In this document: positions 9,593 to 27,010 of the stretch, piece after piece
How positions within the stretch are numbered: the first letter of the stretch is position 1
Layout: each line of letters begins with the position of its first letter
Assembly: GCA_963739915.1 (NCBI GenBank)
Contig: CAVUCF010000027.1
Location: 6,017 to 70,016, forward strand
Origin: an uncultured Ignavibacteriaceae bacterium
GTDB taxonomy: Bacteria > Bacteroidota > Ignavibacteria > Ignavibacteriales > Ignavibacteriaceae
Reading direction: 5' to 3'
Length of the DNA: 64,000 bases
The notes under the pieces: generated by a model
What the model saw: the letters and a program-made list of their open reading frames with translations, nothing else
Told to the model about the DNA's origin: nothing
Database searches by the model: none
Position numbers and translations under genes: made by a program

Positions 9593-9678
9593 TTTCAAAA
9601 AAGGAATGCAAATATAGTAAGTTGAGGATTCTAATACAAAATAAAGATTTTAACACATAAAATCGATTGGCGGTAAAA

Positions 9679-11046
9679 ATGGCTTCCCTTAAAAATTCCA
9701 AAATTCTTGTCTGTGATGATGACGAAACTCTATGCTATCTGCTGAAGGAGCAGTTATTAGAGGAAGGATTTGAAGTTGATGCAGTTTATGATGGTAAGTA
9801 TGCGATAGAAGCAATCAAAAGGTCAAATTACGATGTCCTTTTGCTTGATTTAAATATGAAAGAGGTATCAGGCGAGGACGTACTCAAATTTGTAAAAGAC
9901 TACAGTGCATCTTTGCAGGTAATTGTTCTTTCGGGACAAGGAGAAATGAGGAAAGCTATAGATTGTATAAAAGCAGGTGCCTACGATTTTATTCCAAAGC
10001 CATATGAATTTGAGCAGTTACTTGTAACATTAAGCAGAGCTCTTGAACACAAAGATCTTCTGGTAAAAACTGAAATTTTAACTAAAGAGATAAGTAAAAA
10101 GGGTTCTGAAAATATTATTGGAAATAGTGCTGAATTAAAAAGAGTACTTAACCTGGCAAATAAAGCAGCTATCTCCGATTCAAATATTCTCATCGAGGGA
10201 GAAACCGGAACCGGTAAAGAACTTTTAGCCGAATTCATACATAAACACTCCGCCCGGAAAGACAAACCTTTTGTAGTCATTAATTGTGCTTCGTTGCCCG
10301 ATCAATTAATTGAGAGCGAGCTCTTCGGTCACGAAAGGGGTGCTTTCACAGATGCAAAAAACTCTAAACAGGGATTAGTTGAAATAGCTCATGGCGGGTC
10401 TCTTTTTCTGGATGAAATTGGGGAACTCAGTCTTACGCTTCAGCCAAAACTTTTAAGATTTCTGGAGAATGGAGAATACAGACGTATCGGTGGTATAACT
10501 TCATTAACTTCCAATGTTAGAGTAATAGGAGCCACAAACAGAAACTTACTCGAAGAGGCAGATAATAAAAATTTCCGAAAGGATTTGTTATTCAGGCTAA
10601 ATGTTATCACACTTACGATTCCTCCTTTGCGAGACAGAAGGGAAGATATTTTGCTGCTTGCAAACCATTTTATAAAAGAAAAATCTCCGATACGTTCACC
10701 TAAACATCTTTCTAACGAAGCTGAAGAATTACTTTTAGGTTATTCATTCAACGGTAACATCCGGGAGCTTGATCATATTATTGAAAGAGCAATAATTTTT
10801 GCTGAGGGAGAAATAATTTATCCGGAAGATTTGAACCTGCCTCAGTCATATCAAGTACAAACCAGGAAGCACTCTGAGATTGAACACTCCGAAGAAATTT
10901 TAAGTATGGAAGAACTTGAACGATGGCATATTAAGAAAGTACTCGATAGAAACCGATGGGATAGAACGCAGACTGCTAATCAACTTGGTATAAGCCCAAA
11001 AACTCTATATACCAAAATTAAAAAATATGAATTAAAGCCCGTTTAA
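9679..11046 (+). CDS. sigma54-dependent response regulator (NtrC/PilR-type: REC + AAA+ + Fis-type HTH)
   Basis: REC domain (LLLDLNM), Walker A GETGTGKE, the GAFTDA sigma54-contact loop, and a C-terminal HTH QTANQLGISPKTLYTKIKK. An alternative TTG start lies at 9667. Confidence 0.9.
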   Translation: MASLKNSKILVCDDDETLCYLLKEQLLEEGFEVDAVYDGKYAIEAIKRSNYDVLLLDLNMKEVSGEDVLKFVKDYSASLQVIVLSGQGEMRKAIDCIKAGAYDFIPKPYEFEQLLVTLSRALEHKDLLVKTEILTKEISKKGSENIIGNSAELKRVLNLANKAAISDSNILIEGETGTGKELLAEFIHKHSARKDKPFVVINCASLPDQLIESELFGHERGAFTDAKNSKQGLVEIAHGGSLFLDEIGELSLTLQPKLLRFLENGEYRRIGGITSLTSNVRVIGATNRNLLEEADNKNFRKDLLFRLNVITLTIPPLRDRREDILLLANHFIKEKSPIRSPKHLSNEAEELLLGYSFNGNIRELDHIIERAIIFAEGEIIYPEDLNLPQSYQVQTRKHSEIEHSEEILSMEELERWHIKKVLDRNRWDRTQTANQLGISPKTLYTKIKKYELKPV

Positions 11047-11052
11047 TTTTAA

Positions 11053-13038
11053 ATGCCTTCGAGCATAATTGCCAAATATTCACCCGAAATAATTTTCGGT
11101 GAAAATACCCCGGTTGCAATTACCGATAGTCATCTAAAAATAATTTGGTTCAGCAAAAGCTTTAAAGAATATTTTGCCGGGAACAAATTAAAAGGGAAAA
11201 CACTCGCCAGCCTATTAAATTCAGCCGGAATAGATAAGGACACTGAAGAGGTTTATAAAAAACCGACAATTCGTCAGTTACCCGAAATAAATAAAGAGCT
11301 GCACATAACTCCACTTTTTGCGCAAAACAAAAAAGATAAACCTGACAACTATAAATTAGAACTTCTTGACTCAGCAATAGTATCCCAACCCAAAGCAATA
11401 AATGACAAGTCGAGCAAAGATAATATAAACTTTCGAAATGTGTTTCAGGATATCTTGACATTACTAGTAAAAGAAAATTCGATTGATAAGCTTTCTACTG
11501 AAATATTATCGAAGTCAGTTAACCTAACCAAAAGCGATCTTGGAATAATTACATTCTTAATTGAAAATTCAGAAACAGAATTTAAATATCTTGACCCGCA
11601 GAATATTGTTTCAAATAAATCAGATATTGAAAAAACCGTTAAATCTGATTTCAAGTTTATAAGCAAGTGGTTGATGTTAAATAAATCATCCCTGGTGGCA
11701 GCAAACCAGAAAAATAACCTGGGCAGAAATCTTGCATCTTCTATAGGCTGTGATAATATTCTAGTTGCACCTTGTATCTTTGATGAAAAACTTATTGCAA
11801 CTTTGATTGTAGGAAAATTAAAAGATGAATTTACAATCGATGAAATAAAACTTTTAGAGGAATTCTCGACCCTCCTTACATTCATCATAAGCAACATTAG
11901 AACACGCGATTTAAATACAGCGCTTGAAAGCAGGTTATTACAAGCACAGAAGCTTGAAACGATCGGGAAATTATCAAGCGGAATGGCGCACGATTTTGGC
12001 AACCTTCTTTCCAGCATCTTCGGAAGTTTAAACTTATTAAGAAAGCGAGTCGATCAAACAGATAACGTTCAAAAACTGATTGACAATATTGAAAACTGTT
12101 CGGTAAGAGCCCGGGATTTAACAAAAGGATTGCTCTCATTCGGAAAGCCAACTCCCAAGAGAAAGGAACTTGTAAAACCACACCAGCTATTGAGTGAGAT
12201 TATTAAAATTGTAAACCAAACCTTCCCCAAAGCAATAACACTTACTGAAAAAATTGATACTTCTCTTTATGATATTGTTGGCAATGGGACGGAAATCAAT
12301 CAAGTAATTCTCAATTTGTGTGTTAATGCAAAAGAAGCCATCAAAGAAAGAGGAAATATTAATATTATTGCGAAGAACATAACGATAGACGAGAATAACA
12401 TTTCTTTTCTGCCGCTTTTACAAATCGGGAATTATGTAAGGTTTTCTGTAACAGATGATGGTGTTGGTATAGATGAAAAACACCTGACTAAAATATTTGA
12501 TCCATATTTTTCAACGAAGGTGAAAGATACCGGCTCTGGTTTAGGTTTATATGTTTCCTATGGAATAATAAAAGCACACAATGGATTTATAGATGTGACA
12601 AGTAAGCCCGGAGCGGGAACTACTTTTGATGTTTACATTCCTGCCTTCGAACCTCCTAAAGAAAAGAAAACTGATCCGTCCGAGAAAATTATTTTACTTG
12701 CAGATGACGAACCAATGCTGGGAGATCTTCTCGCTGAACTTCTTGAAACAAGTGGATATTCAGTAATAAAAGTAGCATCCGGAAAGGAAGCACTTAAAGT
12801 TCTTACTGAAGAAATTAAAGTCGATCTTGCTATTATTGATTATAATATGCCGGGGTTATCAGGTCTTGAAACAATTGCAGAGATAAGAAAACTAAATCTG
12901 GATATCCCGATTATTTTATCATCAGGAAGTTTGTGGACAAATCAGGAATCAGAATTTTTAAAATACCAAATCAACGGCCAGCTGAACAAGCCTTATGAAT
13001 TTGAAGCGATGCTGGCTACTATCAGGAAATTCGTTTAA
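11053..13038 (+). CDS. hybrid sensor histidine kinase (N-terminal sensory/GAF-like region + HisKA + HATPase + REC)
   Basis: H-box SSGMAHDFGNLL, N-box LNLCVNAKEA, G-boxes DDGVGI and GSGLGL, and a C-terminal receiver ILLADDE...DLAIIDYNMPG...KP. Confidence 0.9.
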   Translation: MPSSIIAKYSPEIIFGENTPVAITDSHLKIIWFSKSFKEYFAGNKLKGKTLASLLNSAGIDKDTEEVYKKPTIRQLPEINKELHITPLFAQNKKDKPDNYKLELLDSAIVSQPKAINDKSSKDNINFRNVFQDILTLLVKENSIDKLSTEILSKSVNLTKSDLGIITFLIENSETEFKYLDPQNIVSNKSDIEKTVKSDFKFISKWLMLNKSSLVAANQKNNLGRNLASSIGCDNILVAPCIFDEKLIATLIVGKLKDEFTIDEIKLLEEFSTLLTFIISNIRTRDLNTALESRLLQAQKLETIGKLSSGMAHDFGNLLSSIFGSLNLLRKRVDQTDNVQKLIDNIENCSVRARDLTKGLLSFGKPTPKRKELVKPHQLLSEIIKIVNQTFPKAITLTEKIDTSLYDIVGNGTEINQVILNLCVNAKEAIKERGNINIIAKNITIDENNISFLPLLQIGNYVRFSVTDDGVGIDEKHLTKIFDPYFSTKVKDTGSGLGLYVSYGIIKAHNGFIDVTSKPGAGTTFDVYIPAFEPPKEKKTDPSEKIILLADDEPMLGDLLAELLETSGYSVIKVASGKEALKVLTEEIKVDLAIIDYNMPGLSGLETIAEIRKLNLDIPIILSSGSLWTNQESEFLKYQINGQLNKPYEFEAMLATIRKFV

Positions 13039-13709
13039 CCTTCCATTTCACTACTATCCACCTTAATCATCTTAACATCTTTAGCGTAATCAGATAGTTC
13101 CGGTTTGGTTATAGAATTTAATTTGTTCAGAACATCGCTGATATCTTTTATTGCAGCATCAATGTATTTAACACGACTTAAAATTGATTCCCTGGTGAAT
13201 CCTTCTTTTTCAAGTTCTTTCTTAATTGCCGCAGATGAAAGACTGAGCAACGTGAGGGGTTGTTTAATTTTATGATTTGCTGTTACTATCGTGGCAATGA
13301 ACGTTGTTCGTTTTTCTACTTCCAGAAGCTGTTGATTAGCTTCAGAAAGTTTAAGAGCCGATTTTACTCTTGCAATCAACTCAATACGATTAAAAGGTTT
13401 CTTTATATAATCGAAGGCGCCAGATTCAAGGCCTTCTTTAGTATCCTCTGCACCAGCTTTTGCAGTTACAAGAATGATTGGAATGTGCTTTGTCTTTTCA
13501 TCGTTAACAAGAGTTTTACAGACATCAAGCCCGCTCATATCCGGCATCATCACATCCAACAAAATAAGATCGGGTAAAGTAGAATACGCCTTTTCCATTC
13601 CATCGTTGCCGCCGTAAGCTGTAATTACTTCATACCCTTCCTGAGCCAGCCGGTCCTGCAGGATAAATATATTTTCGGGAAGATCATCAATGACCAGAAT
13701 TTTTTTCAT
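13035..13709 (-). CDS. response regulator: REC domain fused to a stand-alone HisKA/DHp-like helix pair (no ATPase domain)
   Basis: REC (ILVIDD...LILLDVMMPDMSG...KP) followed by TIVTANHKIKQPLTLLS, which resembles an H-box (compare SHELRTPL). The protein ends 90 aa later with no N/G boxes. Confidence 0.8.
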   Translation of the reverse strand: MKKILVIDDLPENIFILQDRLAQEGYEVITAYGGNDGMEKAYSTLPDLILLDVMMPDMSGLDVCKTLVNDEKTKHIPIILVTAKAGAEDTKEGLESGAFDYIKKPFNRIELIARVKSALKLSEANQQLLEVEKRTTFIATIVTANHKIKQPLTLLSLSSAAIKKELEKEGFTRESILSRVKYIDAAIKDISDVLNKLNSITKPELSDYAKDVKMIKVDSSEMEG

Positions 13710-13710
13710 T

Positions 13711-16700
13711 TCACGTTGTCTTTAGTTGATTTATTAACTGTTGAATCTTGTGTACAACAAAAGCAGGGTTAACAGGCTTGGGAATGTAGCCGGTGAATCC
13801 ATGTTTTAAAATGATTTCGTTATCTTCTTTCATAGCTTTTGCAGTAACAGCAAAAACAGGAATATCTGACCACTTATTATTTCCCTTAATCTGCTTGATT
13901 GTTTTGAAACCATCCATCTCCGGCATAATGATATCTAAAAGTATTAAGTCGGGAATTTTTGTTTCCAACAATTCCAGGCATTCTTTACCATTATGAGCAA
14001 TTATTGGATTGCAATTAGCCTCTTGAACTATTTCAGCTAAAGTAAAAAGAGTGTTGGGATCATCATCAACAATCATAATATCTAATTCGGAATTTTCATC
14101 ACTGATATGTTGAGGTTCCGGCAGAATACTTTTATCTATTTCTGATTTAGAGATAGAATTTAATCCCGAAGATTGAGAATATTTTACAGACTCCTGATTT
14201 TCAAGCCAGCTCTGTACAAGCCTGAATGCATCAGCAATCTGCCGGTTAGAGTTTAATGTAATTGCTTCGAGAATATCGGAAAGAGATTTCTTGTCTTCGT
14301 TGCTTATTTCACTTTCACAAGAAATAATTATGGGGATAGACTTCGTCTCAGAATTTGATTTCAGCATATAAGTAAGTGTTATACCATCGATACCAGACAT
14401 TGTTAAATCTAATATTATCAGGTCCGGATTCGTATCTTCAATTTTGCTTAATGCTTCTTCACTTTCATTTATTAGTTCAACCTTTGCCTCATCAGAATTC
14501 AAAAGTTGATTAAATTTTTTTAATTCCTGATCATCGTCATCGATAACTGCAATTTTTTGAATATTCTTATTAAAGCTGTTTCCTAATTTGAAAAAGACTT
14601 CAGACAGATATTCAGAGGACAACGGCTTTATTAAATAATCAAATGCTTCAAGCACATAAGCACGATTTTCTTCTTCATTAATTGAAACAAGAATTACAGG
14701 AATATTTTGTGTGTTAACATTTTGCTTTAATTCTTTAATAATATCCCAGCAATTTGTTCTTTTTAGATTTACATTTAGGACGATCGCAATCGGTTGACGA
14801 TCAGTTATGCTTTGAAAATCTAGATTACTGTCTTCTATAAAAATTGATTCATAACCCAGGGAAGAAAGATATTTGCTGGTGGCTGACTTTAATTCATTTC
14901 CCCGATCAATTACAATTATCGGTTTTTTTCCGTTTTTAATAATCGGGAGAATTTCCACCGGTATTCTGTTCTGTTCTCTACTAAATACCTTCACTTGATT
15001 AAATGGAATTGAAAAAGTAAAGGTAGAGCCTTGCTTAAGTTCACTTATAACAGAAAGATTTCCATTCAGAATATCAGACAGCTTCTTGCTTATAGCAAGA
15101 CCCAATCCGGTTCCTCCTCTTCTTCGAGACTTAGAACTATTTGATTGCCGGAACTCCTCAAAAATCACATCAATCTCTTCTTGAGAAATACCAATGCCTG
15201 TATCAACTACTTCAAAGTTTAGCATCTCATTTCCAACCGAAATTTTTAGAACTACTCTTCCTTCATCAGTGTACTTAACAGCGTTTCCTAAAAGATTTAT
15301 AAGAACCTGAACAACTTTTCCACGATCAGTACTAATGACAGTGTGGGGATCAATTTTTCTTACCACTTCGTAACTAATCTTCTTTTCATTTGCCAGCATT
15401 AAAATTCCAGCAGAAACTTCGGCAATAATTTCTTCGAGGATAACATCTTCATGCATCACTTCAACTTTGCCAGCTTCAATTTTCGATAAATCAAGGATGT
15501 CATTTATAAGTGTCATCAATCTTTTACCACTGTTCAGAACCACTTCAAGCCTTTCCTTATTTCGTGGCTCAAGATCAACTTTTTCCAGCATAAGCTCAGT
15601 TAGTCCAAGAATTGAATTCATTGGAGTGCGAAGTTCATGAGACATACTTGCAAGGAATTTAGACTTTGCATCTGTTAATTCAATTGCTCTTTGTCTCTGT
15701 CTTTCCAGTTCCTCAGCCTGAACTTTTAACTCGTTATGAAGTTGTAGTAACGTTTCATTTTGTTCTTTGATCTGAACATTTTGTTTTTGATATTCTTCAT
15801 TCAGTTGTTGAAGCTCAACGACTAATTTTTCAAGCTGCAATAAGGCTCCGGCGTTAGTAATTCCGATTGCCAACTGATCTTTTATTTTTTCCAGATAATC
15901 TCGAACTTCTTCCCGCGGTCTGGTCAACGAACCTAATTCTAAAACAGCGATTGACTTATTATTATAAACTATCGGCAGGAAAAGCATGTATTTAATTTTA
16001 ATATCAAGCAAACCTGTTGAAACAACCGGAAGATCTTCTTCGTTGTAAAGTTCAAGACTCTGTTTTGTTTCAAGAACTTTTTTAAAGAAATCCGCAATTC
16101 CCGGACGTACTGAATAGTTAGTATTTAAACCATACGAAGAGATAAGCGTAATGTTGTCGTCAACACTATAAAGCCCACCAATTAAAAAATCTCCCGTGTC
16201 AAGAATTTTCTTCAAAGCAACGTCTGATATTTCTTTAAGTGACGGATTTTGATTAATAAGAGTAATGAATTCAGCATATTCATTTTTTGCAACTTCCTTC
16301 TTCTTAAGTTCTTCCAGCATTTTGTTAAATGCTGCCCCTAATTTTCCGATTTCATCCTTACTCTTAACCTCAATTTTATAATCGAATTTTCCTGCATAAG
16401 TTTGTTCAGTTGCTTTACTTAATTCAGTTACCTGATTTCTAAATTTATGAGTGAAGACAAGTGTAAAAATCAAAGAGAGAGCGATACCGACAAACCCGAT
16501 AATGATAAAAATACTTTGTAGAGTGCTTCTTAATTCACCAGCTTCTGCAAACGTACCAAATATTAAATAATAAACTTCGTCCTGACCAGCCGCCGTTGTG
16601 GGCTTATATATCGTTGCCAAAATATCTTTGGACTCAGTGCCTTGAATATAAAGTTCAAAATTGTTTTTATTTTTTAGGTTATCAACAGCCTGGCTTAATA

Positions 16701-17256
16701 CGTATAAATATTTCTGATTATCCATCTGGTTAGAAAAATCAGCAGGATAACTATTCCAGATTAGTGCGATGTCCGAATTAATCCTCTTTGAGATTTCATT
16801 AAGCATGTCATTATTGATAGCTCTTCCATATACATATTTTTTTCCATCAGGAGCAGAAAAATTCATTATCATCAAATACGGATTATAACTTTTGAATTCT
16901 CTGATGTTGAATTCTTTTTCAGGAAGGATAATATAGTTTTTAGTCAAATGCTTTGAGATCATCTCTTCCTTTTCATTTCCTAATTCCAGAATAAAATCAA
17001 TGTTCTTTAATTGAAGAGTTTGTTCATCCCAAAACTTTTCTATACCCCGATTATATATTGAAAAAAAATCATCCTCTGTATCTGATTGAAGTGTCCTGTA
17101 AACGTATATAAAATTATTTGCAGATTGTCTTAAATTGCGGGTTTGAGATGATGTAAGAACATCATAAACAATGCTGTAAAATACAAAAAAAGAACTGCCT
17201 AGTATTAGTACTACAATCAGAAAATTGATTAACAATATTCTCAGGCTGATCTTCAT
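13711..17256 (-). CDS. large transmembrane hybrid histidine kinase (sensor domain-TM-HAMP-GAF-coiled coil-HisKA-HATPase-REC*-REC-REC)
   Basis: Two TM helices bracket a sensor domain of about 215 aa. Also present: an HAMP region, the H-box MSHELRTPMN, and the boxes NLLGNAVKYT / DTGIGI / GTGLGL. There are three receiver-like domains. The first has Asn in place of the phospho-Asp (IAIVLNVNL). Confidence 0.9.
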   Translation of the reverse strand: MKISLRILLINFLIVVLILGSSFFVFYSIVYDVLTSSQTRNLRQSANNFIYVYRTLQSDTEDDFFSIYNRGIEKFWDEQTLQLKNIDFILELGNEKEEMISKHLTKNYIILPEKEFNIREFKSYNPYLMIMNFSAPDGKKYVYGRAINNDMLNEISKRINSDIALIWNSYPADFSNQMDNQKYLYVLSQAVDNLKNKNNFELYIQGTESKDILATIYKPTTAAGQDEVYYLIFGTFAEAGELRSTLQSIFIIIGFVGIALSLIFTLVFTHKFRNQVTELSKATEQTYAGKFDYKIEVKSKDEIGKLGAAFNKMLEELKKKEVAKNEYAEFITLINQNPSLKEISDVALKKILDTGDFLIGGLYSVDDNITLISSYGLNTNYSVRPGIADFFKKVLETKQSLELYNEEDLPVVSTGLLDIKIKYMLFLPIVYNNKSIAVLELGSLTRPREEVRDYLEKIKDQLAIGITNAGALLQLEKLVVELQQLNEEYQKQNVQIKEQNETLLQLHNELKVQAEELERQRQRAIELTDAKSKFLASMSHELRTPMNSILGLTELMLEKVDLEPRNKERLEVVLNSGKRLMTLINDILDLSKIEAGKVEVMHEDVILEEIIAEVSAGILMLANEKKISYEVVRKIDPHTVISTDRGKVVQVLINLLGNAVKYTDEGRVVLKISVGNEMLNFEVVDTGIGISQEEIDVIFEEFRQSNSSKSRRRGGTGLGLAISKKLSDILNGNLSVISELKQGSTFTFSIPFNQVKVFSREQNRIPVEILPIIKNGKKPIIVIDRGNELKSATSKYLSSLGYESIFIEDSNLDFQSITDRQPIAIVLNVNLKRTNCWDIIKELKQNVNTQNIPVILVSINEEENRAYVLEAFDYLIKPLSSEYLSEVFFKLGNSFNKNIQKIAVIDDDDQELKKFNQLLNSDEAKVELINESEEALSKIEDTNPDLIILDLTMSGIDGITLTYMLKSNSETKSIPIIISCESEISNEDKKSLSDILEAITLNSNRQIADAFRLVQSWLENQESVKYSQSSGLNSISKSEIDKSILPEPQHISDENSELDIMIVDDDPNTLFTLAEIVQEANCNPIIAHNGKECLELLETKIPDLILLDIIMPEMDGFKTIKQIKGNNKWSDIPVFAVTAKAMKEDNEIILKHGFTGYIPKPVNPAFVVHKIQQLINQLKTT

Positions 17257-17279
17257 TTATTTTGCTTTGAAGGAATTAA

Positions 17280-17645
17280 TTATTTTTTTTGAATTACTCT
17301 TCTAATAGAAGCAAGAAGTTTGCCAAAATCATAGGGCTTAATTATAAAATCTGAAGCACCTAACCTTGCAGATTCTATGGCACTTTTTACGTCTGAGTGG
17401 GCAGTTAAAATGATTATTTTAGGTTTGATGCCCGGATAAGAATTGATTTCTTGCTGAATTTGAAATCCATCTTTCCCGGGCATATTAAGGTCAAGAAGAA
17501 TGAGATCGGTTTCTTTATCTTTTAAGAATTCTGTTACATTTTCACTGTTTGTTAAACAAGATGTTGTGTAACCAGCTGCATTTAATTCTTCCGAAAGAAA
17601 ATTGCACAGATTAATGTCATCATCAACAATAAGAATTGATTCCAT
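17280..17645 (-). CDS. single-domain response regulator (CheY-like)
   Basis: 121 aa: ILIVDDD...DLILLDLNMPGKDG...TAHSD...KP. Confidence 0.9.
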   Translation of the reverse strand: MESILIVDDDINLCNFLSEELNAAGYTTSCLTNSENVTEFLKDKETDLILLDLNMPGKDGFQIQQEINSYPGIKPKIIILTAHSDVKSAIESARLGASDFIIKPYDFGKLLASIRRVIQKK

Positions 17646-17647
17646 TA

Positions 17648-18900
17648 TTACGGTGTCTTGGCATCGTCGCCTTCATTAAATTCATAGTACTTCATTTGGT
17701 TTTTACCAGCTTCTAATTCTTTACTGAGAACATTTTGCCACTGTGGATTATCAAATCTTTCCTGAAGTGTAGGAATGAGTTCCATCTTTAACAATATAAC
17801 AAGTTCTTTTTTCCGAATTATAGTTTGATCGTAGCCAGTTAAATACCTAATACCAAATACCCACCACGGAAGATCCATCAAGAATGGAATACCAACACGT
17901 GTTATCTGCCTCTTCATTAAGAAACAAACCTCCGATAGCAGTTTCTTCTCCATTAAGCATTAGAACCTGTGTGGCGGCAGTTGTCTTTCTAATTTCTGTC
18001 TGTAATTCGTTGGTTGAGAATGAACTTCGTTCAACACCTATATCCAATAGTGCATACTCTAAACCACCTTCTTTTTGAATATAAGGAGTAACTATTATTA
18101 TTGTTCCAGTTGGGAAGAATTGTTCAGTAGTATTTCCAGCAAAATCTCTTGTCTTAACTGAAAAATCTACACCAACCTGAATCTTTCCCTCTGTTCTATC
18201 TCGTACAGTTATACTTGGATTTGAAATAATATTTCCAATACCGGTTTCATCAAAGAACTTAAAGATAGCAGTTGCCTGTCCAAAAAGATCGCCCATTTGA
18301 AAGGCAGAATTAATTCCCATTTTAAATTCCGGCTGAAGACCTTGCTGCTGCTGTTGTCCTCCACCTTCTTGACTTTGATCTCTCTCAGTTTCAGTTCTTA
18401 AGTTTCCGGCAATGTTTGTTTGTTCTCCTGATAATAAAAATCTCCAATCAAAGCCTATTTTTCTGGCTTCGACAACGTCTATTTCACAAAACAGAGCCGA
18501 TATTTTTACCTCACGTTGAGTTAGTGGGGCATATGTATTTGGGATCCTTATTAGCATCTTCGTCATCTTTAGACCGAACTATAATGACATCCTCTTTTAC
18601 TTCGTATTCGAAGCCGGCAAAATTTACGATCATAAGAAGCGCCTTATCGAAAGGCATATTGATTACTTCAATACCGATTGGATCCTTCTTTTGAACTGTA
18701 GAAACAATCCTTCTTCCAGAAACACTTTCGCTTACTTTGCTGAGCAATTCTATTGCCTGATCAAAGGGAAGTGTTTCGGACATTGTTACAAGCTCGTCAG
18801 GATTCTGATAAGTTTTGAACCGTCTTTCCCAATAATCCTGGGCTGTTACCTGAAGAACTATGAGAAGAGATAAAACGAAATAAGTTATTATGTTTTTCAT
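17648..18900 (-). pseudogene. compact secretin (PilQ/GspD family, about 417 aa), split by two frameshifts
   Basis: Three overlapping ORFs (18900-18511, 18566-17847, 17953-17648) read through as signal peptide, N-domain and secretin core. Core motifs are SNPSITVRDRTEGKIQVG and ...TAIGGLFLNEE[shift]ITRVGIPFLMDLPWWVFGIRYL. The shifts lie near 18515-18545 and 17905-17915. Confidence 0.8.
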
Positions 18901-18913
18901 GCTTATACTCTAT

Positions 18914-19792
18914 TTATTTACTTAAATTTCTGTCTAATTGCAGTGTTACTTGTTCAATAATACCACCCTTGTTAAGGATGAAGCTGACCGTATTATTGTC
19001 ATAATCAATTTTGGTAAGGTATCCTAAGTAAACCTGTTCACCTTCCCAAACTAAATAAGTATTACCCTTGTTATCCGCAACGAATGCACCTTCAGGAATT
19101 AACGCAAGTAATCTGCCTCCCTGAACGTCAAGTAAGTTATCGACATTTGGAGGAATCTCATTTCTTATGAGAGGATAGAAGGCGTCATAAATCGGACCGG
19201 TAGCAAGATTATTTTCAACAAACTCAGCCGGTGCAAATCTGGTATCTGACGAAAAATAAACCTGTGCTATAAGCTCAAAGTTTACAAGGAAGAGCGGTAC
19301 TTCATCATCCGTCTTAACCAGATTGGAAAAAGTAAGTTTTCCGATCTTTTTTAGCTCCTTGCTTTGTTCGATAGCATAGATCATTTTATAAACGTCGTTA
19401 TAATTTCCACCGCCAGCAAGCTTGTATTCGTGAAAGAAAAACTCCTTGTCAGGTGCCTGTCTCAGGTACTCTATATTAACAGTTGTTTCCTTCGGGAATT
19501 CAGCAACAATGCTGTTAATGAAGTTATAGAACTTAATTGAGGAAACGTTCTGAGGAATATTGAACTTCCTGTTGGCAAGGATTGAATCTAACTCGGCTGA
19601 TCTTTTTTCGAGTTCAAGATACCGGTTGTTCAATTCTTCCGGATCATAAACATTCTTATTAAGTTCAGCCAGTTTTTCTTGTCTTTCTGATAAATCCCCT
19701 CGCTGAGCAACGAAGATATAAATACCACCGGCAACGAGGATAATTATCAGTAGTGCAAGCACACTGAGAGTGCTAATCAATTTCTTATTCAT
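18914..19792 (-). CDS. PilO-like pilus assembly protein with PilP-like C-terminal extension
   Basis: N-terminal TM helix, a coiled coil and a PilO-type alpha/beta domain to about residue 180, then about 110 further residues of beta-rich sequence. The call rests on operon position and architecture. Confidence 0.6.
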   Translation of the reverse strand: MNKKLISTLSVLALLIIILVAGGIYIFVAQRGDLSERQEKLAELNKNVYDPEELNNRYLELEKRSAELDSILANRKFNIPQNVSSIKFYNFINSIVAEFPKETTVNIEYLRQAPDKEFFFHEYKLAGGGNYNDVYKMIYAIEQSKELKKIGKLTFSNLVKTDDEVPLFLVNFELIAQVYFSSDTRFAPAEFVENNLATGPIYDAFYPLIRNEIPPNVDNLLDVQGGRLLALIPEGAFVADNKGNTYLVWEGEQVYLGYLTKIDYDNNTVSFILNKGGIIEQVTLQLDRNLSK

Positions 19793-21329
19793 TTTGATTC
19801 TTCTGATTTGAAATTTTAAAATTTAAATTGAACCTGTATGCACTCCTTTCCCTTAACTCTTCGTATAGCATACTTTGAAGCACTGCGTTATTGATTGAGT
19901 ATGCAAAATCTGTAAGGGAACTTCGTGTAAGAGAGTATCCTTCGGTTGTAACCTGGTCACCCTCATTACTCATTTTCGATATCCACATATTATTATTGTT
20001 TTGACAAAAACCTGATATCTTCTTTAATAAGCTCTGCCAAACTTCCGTGCCTGCAGCGGCTGAGTCTAAAATAGCCTGCGTTTGACCGAAACTGCTAATT
20101 TTTCCATCCAGGCTGGCAATCCTAACCAATACCTCCTGGTTCTGTCTCATAAGAATTGTTTTTGCTTCTATCTCTTTATCAAGCTCAGCAAGTGCTTTGT
20201 TATTATTTAGTACTTGTTGTGTGATAAAGAATGCAGCTACGAATAAAAGCGGTAAAAGTGCGTATCCATGCCAGGAAAACTGAAAGATTTTTTGTTCTTC
20301 TTTTATGTACTTTGGAAGTATGTGTAATCCGTGATGCTCTTTATTCAGTTCATCAAAATAATCAACTGCTATTGCTACAGGAATACTGAACGTAGAAAAT
20401 TTTTCTTTTGTTTCGTCATCAAGAGCTGATAAATCAAGATCATCAAATTCAAGCCGGCTTACATTTGCTTCGGGGAATGTTCCGTAAAATGATAATATGA
20501 TATTTTCAGAATCATCTTCTCCACAGACAATAATATTATCGAGAGAAGATATGCCTCCATTTTCCATCTCAAGTAATATTTTAGAAAAATAAACATCGTA
20601 GGTGTGAAGATTCTGAGTTCCAATATCAAGCGTGGTTCCAATGTGCTTTATTCTTCTTCCCTGTAAGAATATTAGTTTGCTATATTCCTTACCGATATAT
20701 ACAATCAAAGAATGATCATCCGGGAAGAATTTTTTCCTTTTAGCAACGTAATAAGCAAGCGAAAGATCTGAGCTTTTAATAGTGGGAATATTGAAACCTC
20801 GTTTACCCTTTTGCCTTGCAAGCGAATTGATCATGCTTGCACAAGGAATGTTTTCTGTTACGAAAACGGCAAGCAAGGCTTTATCAGAAAGTTCAACGAA
20901 ATCAATACTGCTTTTATCAACTAAGATATTTTTTGACTCTAAAATATCGTTGATTATAGCCTGTCTGAGCTTGGCAGGATTTTGATGTCTCTCACCTTCA
21001 TAAAGATGATAGTAAATATTTGGCTCAGTTAAAGCAGGTAGAAAAAGGTGCTTGCTTAAATTAAATCCACTAAGCGTTGCACTAAGCTCGGTCATTCCCG
21101 AGAAATCCAGGTCTCCTTTAGAAGATATAGAGTCATCTAATCCTTCTAATTGAAGAGATTCTTCTTCCACCTTAAAACCACCACCGGGTTTATCCAGACT
21201 GGCGGCAGATTTTGAATGACTTATTGAAGCTGTTTTAAGAACTGCCGGTTTGCCGGTTGCTGAGTCCTTACTAATAACAGCCAGTTTAATGTCACTGCTT
21301 TCACAATATATTGAAATTAATGGTTTCAT
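19785..21329 (-). CDS. PilM-PilN fusion (actin-like ATPase fold + TM + PilN-like periplasmic domain)
   Basis: About 345 aa are PilM-like (IVYIGKEYSKL, LDIGTQN). Then come ILPKYIKEEQK, a TM helix, a coiled coil and a C-terminal domain typical of PilN. There is a 4-bp overlap with pilT and an 8-bp overlap with the next gene. Confidence 0.6.
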   Translation of the reverse strand: MKPLISIYCESSDIKLAVISKDSATGKPAVLKTASISHSKSAASLDKPGGGFKVEEESLQLEGLDDSISSKGDLDFSGMTELSATLSGFNLSKHLFLPALTEPNIYYHLYEGERHQNPAKLRQAIINDILESKNILVDKSSIDFVELSDKALLAVFVTENIPCASMINSLARQKGKRGFNIPTIKSSDLSLAYYVAKRKKFFPDDHSLIVYIGKEYSKLIFLQGRRIKHIGTTLDIGTQNLHTYDVYFSKILLEMENGGISSLDNIIVCGEDDSENIILSFYGTFPEANVSRLEFDDLDLSALDDETKEKFSTFSIPVAIAVDYFDELNKEHHGLHILPKYIKEEQKIFQFSWHGYALLPLLFVAAFFITQQVLNNNKALAELDKEIEAKTILMRQNQEVLVRIASLDGKISSFGQTQAILDSAAAGTEVWQSLLKKISGFCQNNNNMWISKMSNEGDQVTTEGYSLTRSSLTDFAYSINNAVLQSMLYEELRERSAYRFNLNFKISNQKNQNE

Positions 21330-22555
21330 TTTGCTGACAACAATTGGTTGATTCTTGTTTTATTATTTGAATAAGTGATCGCTGTTTCAAGCGATATCCT
21401 TTTCTGATCATATAAACGCTTTAAATCCTGCTCCATAGTAAGCATGCCCAGCGGGCCGCCCTGGTTTATCATCATATAAATTTCACTGAGATTATTATTC
21501 TTTATAGCAGCTTTAACACTCGGTGTTATTATCAATACTTCTTTAGCTAACATAACTTTTCCATCAAGACTAGGTACCAGTTTCTGGGAAACAACAGATA
21601 CTAAAACATCTGCTAATCTGTTTCTAACCCTTTCCTGTTCAACTGCATCTACTTCTGCTATAATTCTTTCGATTGATTCAGTGGCTGATGATGTGTGCAA
21701 TGTGGAGAACACTTTATGACCGGTATCGGTAACTTCAAGAGCTGCCATTATAGTATCAGGATCTCTCATTTCACCTATTATTATAATATCCGGATCCTGT
21801 CTTAATGATTGTATAACACCTTCTTTAAATGAAAGAACATCTCTTCCAACTTCTCTGTGCTTAATAAGGCAAAAATTTGAACTATGCACATACTCAATTG
21901 GTGCTGCTATTATAATAAGGTGAGCGGGATCAAACTTATTATGAAAATCTACGATCGAGTCTAGTGTCGTTGATTTACCTGAACCGGTGATTCCTGTAAC
22001 AAGTGTTAATCCGAATTTAATGTAACTATGACTTAAGTATTTAAGTGCAGTGGGATGAAAATCAAGTGATGCAAGTGGACGAATATTAGTATTGATTGCT
22101 CTCATACTGCATCCAAGAGTGTCAAGATCAAAGTAAGCATCAGCTCTGAACCTTACATTAATTTTTCTTCTTTCATAGAAGAACGTGTAGCTAAAGTCAA
22201 GGTTTCTGGTTGCTGCAATATATTTCTTCTGATTTGAATTAAACATATTAGCAATAAGCAGAGCAGATTCATCTTCGGATAGTTGTGGCAGGTCTTTTAC
22301 TCTCTCCAGTTTCCCATAAATCCTCATCCAAAAATAACCTTCATTACCATGTCCACCAATTTCAATATCGGATGCATCCCGTTCAATCATCGAGGTGAGA
22401 ACTCTGTTAATAAATTTTCTCAAAAGAACTATTTCATCTTCTTTGAGCTTACCACTATTTTCAAGAATGTAAGCAACACGGTCCGGTCCGTAAACAGACT
22501 CAGGAATTCTTGCGCAAAAATCTGATAAAATCTTTTTTTCTTCTTTGACTATCAA
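21326..22555 (-). CDS. pilT: PilT-family type IV pilus retraction ATPase
   Basis: Walker A GITGSGKST, the Asp box/Walker B IIIIGEMRD, the His box TGHKVFSTLHT, and no N-terminal GspE-N domain. Confidence 0.85.
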   Translation of the reverse strand: MIVKEEKKILSDFCARIPESVYGPDRVAYILENSGKLKEDEIVLLRKFINRVLTSMIERDASDIEIGGHGNEGYFWMRIYGKLERVKDLPQLSEDESALLIANMFNSNQKKYIAATRNLDFSYTFFYERRKINVRFRADAYFDLDTLGCSMRAINTNIRPLASLDFHPTALKYLSHSYIKFGLTLVTGITGSGKSTTLDSIVDFHNKFDPAHLIIIAAPIEYVHSSNFCLIKHREVGRDVLSFKEGVIQSLRQDPDIIIIGEMRDPDTIMAALEVTDTGHKVFSTLHTSSATESIERIIAEVDAVEQERVRNRLADVLVSVVSQKLVPSLDGKVMLAKEVLIITPSVKAAIKNNNLSEIYMMINQGGPLGMLTMEQDLKRLYDQKRISLETAITYSNNKTRINQLLSAK

Positions 22556-22765: not shown

Positions 22766-24557
22766 TTAATCTTCAGTTGTTGATGAAAGAACTTCTTCAA
22801 GAGAAGTCATCCCAAGCTTAACCTTCTCAAATCCTGACTCTCTTAAGTTCAATGTTCCATCCTTCTTAGCCTGAACTTTAAGCAATTCTTCATCTACATC
22901 TTCTCCGGATTTTACAACCTGATGTCTTAACTCTTTAGTAAAATACAATGCTTCGTGTATTGCCATACGACCTTTGTAACCTGTTCCACCACACTCATCG
23001 CAACCAACAGCACGATAAGTTTCGTACTGCTTCCACTCTTCAATATTTAATCCTGCAACTTCCATAGTAACTTCATCGTGTTCAGTAACTCTCTTCTTAC
23101 ATTTCGAGCAAAGTTTTCGAATTAATCTTTGAGCAACTATAAGATTAATTGCATAAGCTATCAGGAAGGGTTCAATGCCCATTTTAAATAATCTTGATAC
23201 TGCACTTGTTGCATCATTAGTATGTAAAGTTGAAAATGTTAAGTGACCTGTGTTCGCTAATTTAATAGCTGTTTCAGCGGTCTCTTTATCTCTCATCTCA
23301 CCAACAAGCACTATATCCGGGTCGTGTCTTAAGATAGATCTGATAGCTTGTTCAAAATTCATCTTGTAGCCAATCTTTAGTTGACGAGCACCTTCAATAA
23401 CGTACTCAACAGGATCTTCTACCGTAAGAACATTCACTTCAGGATTGACAACCTGGTAAAGTGCAGCAACGAGCGTTGTACTTTTACCGCTTCCTGTGGG
23501 ACCGGTAAGTATTACCATTCCCTGTGGCTGATTAATTGCTTTAATAAATTTTTCTTTTGCTACACCCGTTAGCCCAAGCTTTTCAAGATCCCTAATAACT
23601 TTTCGGTCATCAAGAATTCTTATTACAACACTTTCAAATTTATTCTTCAATTCCGTTCCAACCATTGGCAGAACAGAAACTCTGAACCTGATAATGTATC
23701 CGTCTATTGCTCTCTGAATAAAACCATCTTGTGCAGTCTCACGCTCAAACCTATCCATGCCTTTTCCACGATCTTTAACAACTGCGATAACAGCTTCGGG
23801 CAAAGTATTTTCCTGCACATGCCACAAACGCAATGTTCCATCAATTCTCATATATATTTCAGGACCGATGACCACTGCATGGTATGAAGTGAACATCACT
23901 CGCACCCTTACGAACAGCTTCGAGCAATGCACCTTCAACAAGGTTTATCAGTGCACTCTTATTAATTTCCGCATCGAGTTCATCTTCATCAAGATCTTCC
24001 CGGTCTTCACTCGGAGCGAGGTTTTCCATTTCATCTGAAATGTTCTTCAGAAACACATTTTCCGGCGGGATGATTTTTTCTATCAGCCGATCGTAGTCTT
24101 TTTTCTTAATGAAGATTACTTCATACTTTTTAGCATTTAGACCAAAAGCAACTTTCGGAACATTTCTGTTAGTAGGATCTGTTGCGGCGATAATTAATTT
24201 ATCTTTTGTCTGTTCGTCATAAATAAATGGTATGATCTTGTCCCTGAGCATAAGTTCTTTAAGCTCTTCCCCACCACCTTCAATCATATTACGTATAGTT
24301 TCAAGGTAATCAGGCTGTATAGTCGCCAAATCAATATCGAGCTCGCGGAAGGCATAAAGAATTGCTACTTCTCTGAAAATAATATCGTGGTCATAATTAA
24401 AGTCATCAACAAGTATCTGGGCAAGGTTTCTTCTTAGCTTGTTACGATCATTGAACTTTGCATTAAGAGCTTTGTCCAATGTTGCGGCATCAATAATTCC
24501 CTTTTTAAAGAGCAGATAGCCTATTTTATCGTTAACTTCCAATTTTGTCTCAATCAT
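22766..24557 (-). pseudogene. pilB: PilB/GspE-family assembly ATPase, split by one frameshift near 23868-23885
   Basis: ORF 24557-23859 holds the GspE-N domain plus ...GASDVHFIP. ORF 23941-22766 continues with ...VVIGPEIYMRIDG, Walker A GPTGSGKSTT, VGEMRD, TGHLTFSTLHTN and the tetracysteine CSKC...CDEC. Confidence 0.85.
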
Positions 24558-24576: not shown

Positions 24577-25920
24577 CTAATTCACGCCAGGTGTTTTGGG
24601 TCTTACTGTAGCAGTCTCAGCAGAAACAAGAGTCAATGCTATCATTATTACCATTATTACCATCGCAATAGTTACCTGAATAATTTCAATAAGGTTCTTT
24701 AAGCGGAACACCGTTTCACTCTCATAATAGTTTGCTAATTGCAACGCTGTATTTTTAATTGTACCTGACTCTTCACCAGAGTGAATTCTTGAGATAGCCG
24801 TTTCTGTAAAAACACCCGAAGCTTCAAAAGCGTCGGTAACTCCCACACCCTTTTTAAGCATAAGAGGGATGGCAATATTTTTAATCCGATTTTCAAAGTA
24901 CGTGTTACCAGTAGCTTCCGCAGCAATTCTTATAGGCTCGATACTTTCAGCAGAGCCATGATAAAGTGTATAAAACACGCGGCAAAAAACTTCAATACAA
25001 GTTTTGTGAATTAAGCTTCCTATTACAGGCAACTTTAAAATATATTCATCAAAAAGCAGTCTGCCTTTTTTAGTACGCACAAATTGAAATAATGCAATTG
25101 GAGGAATGAAAAGCACTCCTGCAATCAGCCAGGGGTTTCCCACTAAGAAATCACTCAGCTTAAGTGTGAATGCAGTCATCGGAGGTAATTCAATTCCAAA
25201 ACGAACGAACAGTTTTGCGGTCTCTGGAAAGATATAACCAACGTAAAAAATTACAGCCAGAAATAAAACAAAGAGCGTAACCATCGGAGTTATGAGGGCA
25301 CTTCTTAAGCTCTTTCTGAATTCCTGTTGTCTTTCAAGGAACTTTGCGGTTGCAATATAAATCTCTGCCATGTTACCACTCTTGGATGCAAGTCCAAGCA
25401 TATAAGCAGTAAACTTTCCAAATATATTTTGATACTTTAAGAAAGTTGCTTCAGAGTCGGCACCTTTCTTAAGATCATTGCTTATTTCTTTTAATGTGTT
25501 TCTTAATGCTGCGTTTTGTGTGTCGTTAGTAAGCAGTGTTAAAATTTCACCGTAGCCAAGTTTCTGGTTTAATAATTCTGCACTTATTTTTACAAAAGTC
25601 ACTATCTCATTATTTGGTGGTTTACGCTGAAAATCTAATAGTTTTCTATTAACAGATAATATGCTATATCCCAACCTGGTTAAAGCCTCTTCAACCTCTT
25701 TTTTAGTGTACGCTTTCTGCTCGCCACGAATTGGTTTGTCTTTTCCTTTGCGAACACGATATAGATAAGTAGATTTCCTTTGAACATCATTAAGTTTTAA
25801 CTTATTCTTTTCTACAAGTTTCTGAATCTTTTTCTTCCCCTCAATGGATGAACCGGCCGTAACCGTTCCCGTAATTGCCTGACCATTAGGTTTAAGCGCT
25901 GTGAATTTTAACTCAACCAT
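24577..25920 (-). CDS. pilC: PilC/GspF-family platform protein
   Basis: 447 aa with a duplicated T2SS-F domain and three TM segments. Confidence 0.85.
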   Translation of the reverse strand: MVELKFTALKPNGQAITGTVTAGSSIEGKKKIQKLVEKNKLKLNDVQRKSTYLYRVRKGKDKPIRGEQKAYTKKEVEEALTRLGYSILSVNRKLLDFQRKPPNNEIVTFVKISAELLNQKLGYGEILTLLTNDTQNAALRNTLKEISNDLKKGADSEATFLKYQNIFGKFTAYMLGLASKSGNMAEIYIATAKFLERQQEFRKSLRSALITPMVTLFVLFLAVIFYVGYIFPETAKLFVRFGIELPPMTAFTLKLSDFLVGNPWLIAGVLFIPPIALFQFVRTKKGRLLFDEYILKLPVIGSLIHKTCIEVFCRVFYTLYHGSAESIEPIRIAAEATGNTYFENRIKNIAIPLMLKKGVGVTDAFEASGVFTETAISRIHSGEESGTIKNTALQLANYYESETVFRLKNLIEIIQVTIAMVIMVIMIALTLVSAETATVRPKTPGVN

Positions 25921-26041: not shown

Positions 26042-26081
26042 TTAAAAAGAAAAAGGCTGCAATATTTTCTATTGCAGCCTT
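26042..26081 (-). terminator. rho-independent terminator after the pilin-like gene pair
   Basis: AAGGCTGCAAT-ATTTTCT-ATTGCAGCCTT. On the minus strand it is followed by TTTTTCTTTTT. Confidence 0.75.
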
Positions 26082-26184
26082 AAACTTTAATGAATGCTAT
26101 CTAAGATAGCAAAGATATGTTTACGGGATTTATTACCGTTTAATACTAGTCGGTGTAACTGTTGTCTCAACAGTCCAAGTATAA

Positions 26185-26514
26185 CTAGCTTCTAACGGGT
26201 GTTCCGGTAAGCACTACTTGCTGTGCTTCTATAGCAGCACTATAACTACCATTAGCAGTATTTACTAAGTTTAACGGAATTGCCCAGGTTACACCATTTA
26301 CTCCAGTTCCATCAAATGTATTTCCGCCACCGCCCATTGATCCAGGCTTTTTGTAATGCTGCTGTGCCATAGCACCTAAGTTAGTATTATCGGATACGAC
26401 TCCGTCTTTTGCTGCTTCTTCAGCATTTGCGTTGAAAAGATTAATACCAACAACTACAGCGATACCAACTATGATAACGCCAAGAACGATTAAGAGAAGC
26501 TGTTGCTGACCCAT
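26185..26514 (-). CDS. non-canonical pilin-like protein, paralog 2 (MGQQQLL N-terminus)
   Basis: 109 aa. MG, then QQQ, then a hydrophobic helix of about 22 aa (LLLIVLGVIIVGIAVVVGINLF), then a small soluble domain. GGAG RBS 9 nt upstream. An in-frame stop lies 33 nt upstream with no alternative start. Confidence 0.6.
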   Translation of the reverse strand: MGQQQLLLIVLGVIIVGIAVVVGINLFNANAEEAAKDGVVSDNTNLGAMAQQHYKKPGSMGGGGNTFDGTGVNGVTWAIPLNLVNTANGSYSAAIEAQQVVLTGTPVRS

Positions 26515-26572
26515 TTTTTTACTCCTGTTTTTGTTTGAGTTAAGTTAATTATGTGTTATTGTTAATTATGAG

Positions 26573-26956
26573 TTAATGAATTACTTCCGTGTACAATTCA
26601 TCTGCGGTTACTACTGTCTCGACTTTTATCGAGTCTCCGCCTGTCACTACTTCACTTCCCGTGCCAGTTATCCTAATTTCATCTGCTTGAATATTTGCAG
26701 TCATAAAATTCCCATTGGCAGTTGTTACCATTTGGTATGGAATTGTCAAACCAAGAAATGACTTTCCGCCGCCGCCTAATTCTGTTGGTTTTTTAAAATA
26801 TTGTAAGGCCATTACACCTAAGCTTGTTGTTTCTTCAATTAAGATATCACGCTTTCCTTCAATTGCATTTGATCTAAACAACGAGATAGAGATAGCTATT
26901 GCTATTGCTACTATTATCAGCGCTAGTACTATCATTAAAAGTTGTTGTTGACCCAT
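26573..26956 (-). CDS. non-canonical pilin-like protein, paralog 1 (MGQQQLL N-terminus)
   Basis: 127 aa with the same N-terminus as paralog 2 and shared blocks LF..NA.E, T.LG.MA.Q..KKP, GGGG..F, TANG and TGT. AGGA RBS upstream. An in-frame TAA lies 18 nt upstream of the ATG. Confidence 0.6.
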   Translation of the reverse strand: MGQQQLLMIVLALIIVAIAIAISISLFRSNAIEGKRDILIEETTSLGVMALQYFKKPTELGGGGKSFLGLTIPYQMVTTANGNFMTANIQADEIRITGTGSEVVTGGDSIKVETVVTADELYTEVIH

Positions 26957-26993: not shown

Positions 26994-27010
26994 GAGTAAA
27001 AAGTATGCCA
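26994..27010 (-). promoter_or_regulatory. candidate sigma54 (-24/-12) promoter for the pilin-like genes
   Basis: The minus strand reads cTGGCATacttTTTACt. The GG sits at the correct spacing, but the -12 element is TTAC rather than TTGC. It lies about 40 nt upstream of the ATG at 26956. Confidence 0.35.

Follow-up and report, generated by a model that had tools for sequence, protein, structure and literature searches.

Can the subunits of a type IV pilus be made without a leader and assembled without the peptidase that removes it? The question is raised by two tandem genes in a 64,000-nucleotide stretch of contig CAVUCF010000027.1 from an uncultured Ignavibacteriaceae bacterium (assembly GCA_963739915.1); we refer to the whole stretch as the window. 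Type IV pili, type II secretion, competence pili and archaella are all taken to share two universal hallmarks, a class III signal peptide and a peptidase dedicated to it, and detection tools such as PilFind, N_methyl hidden Markov models (HMMs) and TXSScan depend on these. The two genes lie beside pilus genes, and their products, here called the MGQQQ pair, begin with M-G-Q-Q-Q. We lean toward the reading that the tandem pair encodes leaderless pilins that need no prepilin peptidase for assembly and have Gln5 where Glu5 would stand.

Two tandem genes with a leaderless start

Paralog A is an open reading frame (ORF) of 127 amino acids (aa) at 26573..26956 on the minus strand and starts with MGQQQLLMIVLALIIVAIAIAISISLF. 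Paralog B, on the same strand at 26133..26514, encodes about 128 aa after removal of a 1-nt insertion and has the N-terminus MGQQQLLLIVLGVIIVGIAVVVGINLF. In both ORFs some 22 hydrophobic residues come after MGQQQLL, which bears out what a first, sequence-only reading of this DNA had described beside the pilus genes. The two proteins are 47% identical (E = 2e-27).

As assembled, paralog B is the 109-aa ORF 26185-26514. Near 26196-26199 a CCC run has gained an extra C, which cuts the gene short. Using tblastn with the ortholog P0122 and translation of the other frames, the lost C-terminus PLEASYTWTVETTVTPTSIKR was found in another frame, running to a stop at 26133. Orthologs of paralog B have about 123-131 aa. 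The lengths first given, 127 and 109 aa, are therefore right for paralog A, while the second is a product of the frameshift. The deposited proteins P0001 and P0121 are identical to the window ORFs, same truncation included. Five single-base frameshifts fall within about 12 kb: one in aspS (~27700), the one in pilin B (~26196-26199), one in pilB (~23860) and two in pilQ (~18530 and ~17915). Given their clustering, and as the same genes are all intact in the close relative L001, the most likely source of the frameshifts is long-read assembly error, and not decay into pseudogenes.

An assembly this rich in frameshifts might suggest that the short N-terminus is itself an artifact of annotation or assembly, with the true start upstream and a normal leader behind it. 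A few database entries (e.g. P0043, P0279, P0316) are N-terminally extended. However, in-frame stops begin 18 nt (5 codons) and 33 nt (10 codons) before the two ATGs, with no ATG, GTG or TTG between stop and start for either window gene, and an AGGA/AGGAG ribosome-binding site precedes each. An upstream in-frame stop without an alternative start is likewise present at 170 of 173 family gene starts from 83 related loci, all independent assemblies, which is well outside what chance would produce. The distance from stop to start in those copies is 0-15 codons, mostly 1-5. ATG serves as start codon in 127 copies, TTG in 30 and GTG in 13; 153 copies have a ribosome-binding site, and the full-length copies all begin with M-G-Q-Q-Q (166/166). 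On the strength of these stops a start-codon artifact, already argued against from the window alone, was rejected as exceedingly improbable. The leaderless start of the MGQQQ proteins is real.

The pair is fixed beside pilC in a type IVa-like gene cluster

The gene order of the cluster is the pilin pair followed by pilC-pilB-pilT-p514-p292-pilQ, and it is kept in nearly every related locus with enough flanking sequence. As predicted from the window, wherever a related genome offers enough flank, orthologs of the pair stand beside pilC and pilB with essentially no exception. Two tandem MGQQQ copies lie directly upstream of pilC in 68 loci, three in 10 loci and four in one locus, with paralog A leading the pair in about 70 loci. 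The machinery is otherwise without a subunit gene.

All machinery genes of the window are on the minus strand. The PilC/GspF-type inner-membrane platform protein (24577..25920, 447 aa) matches Pfam T2SSF at 3.5e-28, and its L001 ortholog matches NCBIfam GspF, HofC and PilC at 1e-37 to 1e-40. The PilB-type assembly ATPase (22766..24557; Pfam T2SSE, 9e-96) is split into two ORFs by the frameshift near 23860. In L001 pilB is intact (596 aa), and its product matches the window in two frames with tblastn; the top NCBIfam model is type IV-A PilB, at 428 bits against a cut-off of 676. A PilT/PilU-family ATPase, the candidate retraction motor, is encoded at 21326..22555 (409 aa; Pfam T2SSE). Its L001 ortholog scores 313.9 bits with pilT_fam, for which the cut-off is 319.1. 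The PilQ-like secretin (17648..18900; Pfam Secretin) is broken into three ORFs by two frameshifts, a 129-aa window ORF being its N-terminus. The L001 secretin has 415 aa, matches the window in three frames with tblastn and hits NCBIfam PilQ at 1.4e-23. For PilB, PilT, PilC and PilQ the best NCBIfam models (type IV-A PilB, pilT_fam, GspF/PilC and PilQ) all score under their equivalog cut-offs.

Between pilT and pilQ lie two conserved genes. The first encodes a 514-aa protein (p514, 19785..21329) whose C-terminal part is PilN-like. It has no Pfam match at 0.01; the weak PilN matches are to Pfam (E = 0.066) and, with a profile of 16 orthologs, to Myxococcus PilN 3jc8 (E = 0.0055). Its N-terminal part, with a conserved DxGT motif, may be PilM-like. 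The second encodes a 292-aa protein (p292, 18914..19792) with an N-terminal hydrophobic segment. It is present in nearly all loci, has no Pfam, NCBIfam family or PDB match, and occupies the gene position expected of PilO/PilP, neither of which was identified in the window. Judged by these matches, the machinery is of the type IVa kind with a putative retraction ATPase, and PilMNOP are identifiable in part. What had been taken for a complete PilBCT/MNOPQ set thus holds for the PilB, PilC, PilT and PilQ homologs, with pilB and pilQ frameshifted, PilN weak and PilO/P missing from the identified genes.

The N-terminal helix is the conserved part of the protein

Paralog A has 711 close homologs and paralog B 5142 homologs; all are annotated as "hypothetical protein", come from Ignavibacteria and carry no precomputed Pfam domain. 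An exhaustive profile search (E≤1e-3) returned a family of 1878 clusters at 50% identity, and at least 564 copies turned up when one genome was scanned per species. The short MG-type N-terminus is present in 130 of the best 149 cluster representatives. The best 79 loci all belong to Ignavibacteriaceae, Melioribacteraceae or related metagenome-assembled genomes (MAGs), a few with odd labels. The family is unannotated and confined essentially to Ignavibacteriota.

In paralog B from 67 genomes, residues 1-27 are 95.6% identical and the remainder 49.5%. For paralog A the corresponding values are 69.6% and 47.5%. A helix far more conserved than the head domain is the opposite of what a passive anchor would show and is like the core helix of a filament. 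The hydrophobic run covers residues 6-27, and the helix is interrupted by Gly12, Gly17 and Gly23. Among the 130 representatives the N-terminal residues are G2 in 129, Q3 in 117, Q4 in 122 and Q5 in 128. The single other residue at position 2 is Ala. At position 5 the two others are His and Glu, the Glu being in P0322 (MGTKELL), a divergent member. The Leu first noted at +5 is correct if the protein is cut after Gly2; counted from Met1, position 5 is the nearly invariant Gln. Cys is absent from both window proteins as read, as had been noted, though this is not a family trait: of 67 orthologs of each type, 20 of the A type and 32 of the B type contain it.

AlphaFold2 (AF2) predicts for paralog A a helix at residues 2-55 (54 residues), a Gly-rich GGGG loop and four sequential beta-strands, with a mean predicted local distance difference test (pLDDT) score of 84.7. 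For an intact paralog B ortholog the same architecture is predicted at a mean pLDDT of 95.5. The models thus agree with the long N-terminal helix and small beta-sheet that had been anticipated. Also as anticipated, neither protein matches the Pfam/NCBIfam prepilin models (N_methyl, Pilin, T2SSG, TIGR02532) at E≤10.

A full Ignavibacteria-type cluster was also found in L004, L035 and L060, whose record titles read Deltaproteobacteria, Acidobacteriota and Bacillota. These oddly labelled loci may be mis-binned contigs or may reflect a wider host range. GC-rich upstream regions were seen in L035 and L080. L008 and L083 both come from GCA_001802865.1 (Ignavibacteria bacterium RBG_16_34_14), and each contig encodes aspS and an A-type pilin gene, which suggests a mixture of strains in the bin and not a true duplication.

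Companion leaderless genes, one of which shares the Gln5 register

Three further genes flank the pilin pair in 16-19 related loci, for example at L083:4465-6804 on the minus strand; other loci with the module include L043, L047, L034, L025, L037, L059, L031, L046 and L048. The module is absent from the window. The genes code for proteins of about 164 aa (m164, starting MNTGQMML), 199 aa (m199, starting MGFSSLLD or M-x-x-x-L-D) and 407 aa (m407, starting MNGKATLL, with a weak DUF4900 match). Some m164 members carry the JGI name "MSHA pilin protein MshD". In all three the hydrophobic helix begins directly at the N-terminus. By size, by order and by the largest lacking a polar residue 5, we infer that they may correspond to the GspI/J/K or PilV/W/X minor-pilin set.

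Like the MGQQQ pair, m164 has a Gln at residue 5 counted from Met1 (108/114), and position 4 is Gly in 109 of 114. The residue before this Gln is Gly in close relatives and Ser, Ala, Thr or Val in distant members. The simplest rule common to both families would take Met1 as residue 1 and Gln5 in place of the canonical Glu5, a shared register that argues against removal of a leader. Removal of the Met by methionine aminopeptidase fits the MG- starts but not the MN- start of m164.

It is possible, though we hold this with less than even confidence, that Ignavibacteriota have a type IV filament lineage in which every subunit is leaderless, no peptidase is used and Gln5, counted from a retained Met, replaces Glu5. 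Equally tentative is the extension of such a lineage to the major pair, the scattered paralogs described below and the three-member minor set together.

Putative promoter and terminator of the pair

A sigma54-type (-24/-12) promoter-like motif, TGGCATACTTTTTACT, lies at 26995..27010 on the minus strand, 54 nt upstream of paralog A. In 60 of 80 loci the motif, with the consensus TGGCATAATTTTTGCT (TGGCA-N6-TTTGC), occurs upstream of the first pilin gene at a distance of 43-135 nt. It was scored with an iteratively refined matrix at a cut-off that 1% of random segments pass; since the matrix's training set was these same sequences, the enrichment is inflated, and a strict regular expression found the motif in only 14 of the 80 upstream regions. 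The -12 element in this clade is often TTTT or TTAC instead of TTGC.

An intrinsic-terminator-like hairpin with a 12-bp stem and a T run, found by a consensus scan, lies between paralog B and pilC (26053..26081, minus strand). A comparable hairpin separates the last pilin gene from pilC in 44 of 63 loci. By analogy, this arrangement of promoter and terminator resembles that of a major pilin gene.

Next to pilQ the window encodes a block of signalling proteins, assigned by Pfam domains: a single-domain response regulator (17280-17645), a hybrid histidine kinase (13711-17256) and a receiver protein (13035-13709) on the minus strand, then a histidine kinase (11053-13038) and an NtrC-type sigma54 activator (9667-11046, also with NCBIfam NtrC/AtoC-type matches) on the plus strand. 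A response regulator and a hybrid kinase likewise follow pilQ in L001. The block (9667..17645) would hold candidate regulators of the sigma54 pilin promoter.

Is a prepilin peptidase involved?

No A24 peptidase homolog was found in the window, as had been stated, or in the 83 related loci (~1.4 Mb). E. coli GspO and PppA served as queries, as did an HMM built from the two sequences, with filters off. Among the weak matches the best were CcsA cytochrome-assembly proteins, confirmed by Pfam. The canonical G-F/M-T-L-x-E motif was also absent from the window in any frame and from the 83 related loci. In the genome paper on Melioribacter roseus, the authors report finding neither pilA nor pilD (PMC3534657). 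The MGQQQ pair is present at two loci (L028 and L050) from M. roseus MAGs, and since pilA was reported missing from this organism, the pair is probably its missing pilA.

It is also conceivable that the proteins are pilus subunits with an ultra-short class III leader, cut by an unlinked A24 peptidase at MG|QQQ and, in m164, at MNTG|Q. The resulting N-terminal Gln may, by analogy with archaeal EppA substrates, be cyclised to pyroglutamate. Gly2 in 129 of the 130 representatives, with Ala in the other, would suit such a cut, as would the G-Q of most m164 proteins (MNTG-Q, G4 in 109/114); a small residue followed by Gln thus recurs in both families. In other bacteria pilD is often unlinked to the pilin genes, and all MSHA loci are without it (PMC6668835). 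At least one Ignavibacteriales MAG has been reported with a canonical Geobacter-like pilin (PMC7399161), so a peptidase is possible in some members.

Known class III signal peptides have a hydrophilic leader of 6-26 residues ending in Gly, then 21 hydrophobic residues with Glu5 (PMC4471445). One residue plus Gly, with no basic residue, falls far short of these bacterial leaders. The would-be +1, position 3, is the least conserved Gln (117/130, compared with 128/130 for Q5), the would-be -1 is Ser, Ala, Thr or Val in distant m164 members, and m199 members start with MS, MQ, MH or MN and no Gly. Taken with the failure to find an A24 homolog around the clusters and the reported absence of pilD in M. 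roseus, these features make a cleaved ultra-short leader unlikely in our view. They bear as well on the two routes to a mature N-terminus that had been proposed at the outset: cleavage between G and Q becomes the less likely, with Q3 the least conserved and the residue before Gln varying in m164, and Met excision alone does not suit the M-N start.

Evidence against leaderless pilins

Several observations weigh against the leaderless pilin reading. The absence of pilD genome-wide rests on one annotation-based statement from 2013 (PMC3534657), and there is the canonical pilin of the Ignavibacteriales MAG mentioned above. Gly2 is as invariant as Gln5, which a model with no cleavage does not explain. 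Neither AF2 model gave anything significant in Foldseek against the PDB (all E≥0.1). The sole global match of model A was full-length PAK pilin 1oqw, with template modelling (TM) scores of 0.59/0.53 at E = 2, and for model B the top 50 contained no pilin. Against PDB sequences the family profile reached pilins only below threshold (Geobacter pilin, E = 0.3; PilE1, E = 2). With hhalign, the family reached 11.6% probability against eight E. coli class III proteins, the range for the family, m164, m199 and m407 being 0.2-11.6%; the alignment register is informative for m164 alone (M1 to F1, Q5 to E5) and is not trustworthy.

All five divergent members with informative contigs (P0322, P0343, P0300, P0335 and P0378) are encoded away from any pilB or pilC and without the sigma54 motif. 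These orphan loci, far from pilus genes, are L089:10001-10390, L094:5779-6195, L096:2500-2883, L097:8001-8384 and L099:2499-3467. At one of them the divergent member's locus has a tandem pair of its own. A Sigma70_r4_2 gene starts 2 nt downstream of the P0335 gene.

The head domain also occurs in settings that are not those of a pilin. It follows a Sec or lipoprotein signal in P0340 (...LIVSC|NSNAVEANRD) and P0248, and a cytoplasmic zinc-ribbon plus a transmembrane segment in P0298, P0331 and P0351; it is present as 2-5 tandem copies in the long Sec-exported proteins P0241, P0255, P0308 and P0371. The C-terminal half of the long helix accompanies it there. Since a Sec or lipoprotein signal precedes the head domain in some homologs, the domain is extracytoplasmic. 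An N-out/C-in topology, considered as the N-terminus has no flanking positive charge, was rejected on the same grounds.

These settings raise the alternative that the pair form no filament and are small bitopic proteins of the inner membrane, with the head in the periplasm and some other role, such as that of an accessory or sensor that happens to have pilus genes as neighbours. The lack of a significant structural or sequence link to pilins is in keeping with this, as are the scattered divergent members, P0335 lying directly upstream of a sigma-factor-like gene, and the head domain turning up as a lipoprotein, in a Sec-exported protein and in tandem repeats. Yet a passive anchor is not expected to be 96% identical over 27 residues with its head at 50%. 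In about 70 genomes the pair holds its place immediately upstream of pilC, and its promoter and terminator are arranged as is typical for the gene of a highly expressed subunit; the cluster has no other gene for a subunit, and the companion leaderless proteins are minor-pilin-like by size and order. For canonical type IV pilins, scattered paralogs sharing one N-terminal motif are normal. A non-filament role for the pair thus seems to us rather improbable, and so does the pair being part of a broader family of periplasmic-domain proteins. The scattered paralogs fit an N-terminal motif that is the recognition or assembly signal of a shared machine, and part of the family may have a non-filament role.

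The pilin role is supported by context, conservation and predicted architecture, and by no significant similarity test. The first suggestion of an undescribed pilin class is upheld on these three counts and by the family being absent from the literature searched; in significant similarity to solved pilins it finds no backing. Our literature search found neither the MGQQQ motif nor the concept of a leaderless pilin, the Melioribacter statement (PMC3534657) being the only relevant one. In Denise et al. 2019 (PMC6668835) Ignavibacteria and leaderless subunits are unmentioned, and Ignavibacterium and Melioribacter are not in the supplements.

A model for assembly without leader cleavage

If the pair are leaderless pilins, the following would be expected. 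In Ignavibacteriota the conserved tandem pair would supply the subunits of a type IVa-like pilus. Its transcription would run from the sigma54-type promoter to the terminator before pilC, much as it does for many genes of major pilins. The pilin-like proteins would be made already "mature", with a Met followed by the core helix (M1-G2-Q3-Q4-Q5-L6-L7-L8) and no basic leader. Once inserted into the inner membrane, they would keep the N-terminus inside, with a periplasmic head domain. PilB and PilC, with the PilM/N-like protein, may extract and polymerise them; the filament would exit through the PilQ secretin and could be retracted by the PilT-family ATPase. Cleavage by a prepilin peptidase would be dispensable. 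The near-invariant Gln5 would stand in for Glu5, an uncharged residue 5 being paired with an N-terminus other than a free methylated amine.

Should this be true, both of the features that define the type IV filament superfamily and serve to detect it would be broken. Neither leader cleavage nor Glu5 would be mechanistically required for assembly by a PilB/PilC motor, and these bacteria would offer a natural test case for the roles of Glu5 and of N-terminal methylation. Thousands of unannotated "hypothetical proteins" would become likely surface-filament subunits, in hosts that are abundant in sediments, wastewater and hot springs and are involved in polysaccharide degradation and iron reduction.

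Comparison with known systems

Archaeal EppA-type precursors have a basic leader and a QxSxExxxL motif and require EppA; they have Gln at +1 and a pyroglutamate N-terminus. Like the EppA-dependent pilins, the MGQQQ pair has Gly-Gln at a putative processing site and no Glu5. However, its leader would be just "M", its QQQLLLIVL is without the S/E pattern, and it has no Pfam (DUF361) match. The window machinery also differs from the archaeal systems, being bacterial type IVa with a secretin and PilT. The pair is further unlike Flp/Tad pilins: it has no G/xxxxEY motif and about 127 aa, compared with about 40-60 aa for the mature Flp/Tad proteins.

A further possible parallel is the Cytophaga-type "T2SS" (type II secretion system) of Bacteroidetes, which branches within type IVa pili (T4aP) (Denise et al. 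2019, PMC6668835). This system of the Bacteroidetes/Chlorobi (FCB) group is derived from T4aP and has a very divergent major pilin. The trio of the relatives is like GspI/J/K of T2SS and PilV/W/X of T4aP in comprising three extra genes, each coding for an N-terminal hydrophobic helix, and m407 is like GspK and PilX in having no polar or acidic residue near position 5. Unlike those sets, m164, m199 and m407 are leaderless and have no prepilin-type HMM match, with weak DUF4900 similarity in the largest only.

The type IVa major pilins PilA and PilE differ from the MGQQQ pair at the N-terminus. The pair has 0-1 residue before the Gly, compared with 6-26, and this leader is neither hydrophilic nor basic. 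Residue 5 is Gln and not Glu, and no Phe or Met follows directly after the Gly. In type IV pilins a conserved Gly at -1 immediately precedes the helix; the pair has a nearly invariant Gly2, a possible cleavage site, that is separated from the hydrophobic run by QQQ. The pair also has no HMM match, no linked prepilin peptidase and, in the window copies, no disulfide-bonded D-region. We therefore do not file the MGQQQ proteins as members of a prepilin-type family and propose instead that they work like type IV pilins. The likenesses lie in the rest of the protein and in its genes. Like PilA and PilE, the pair has about 125-130 aa, with a predicted N-terminal helix of about 54 residues whose hydrophobic first half is very highly conserved, and a predicted small antiparallel sheet. 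As for major pilins, the genes lie beside pilB, pilC, pilT and pilQ, with a putative sigma54-type promoter, a putative terminator and an N-terminal motif common to the paralogs.

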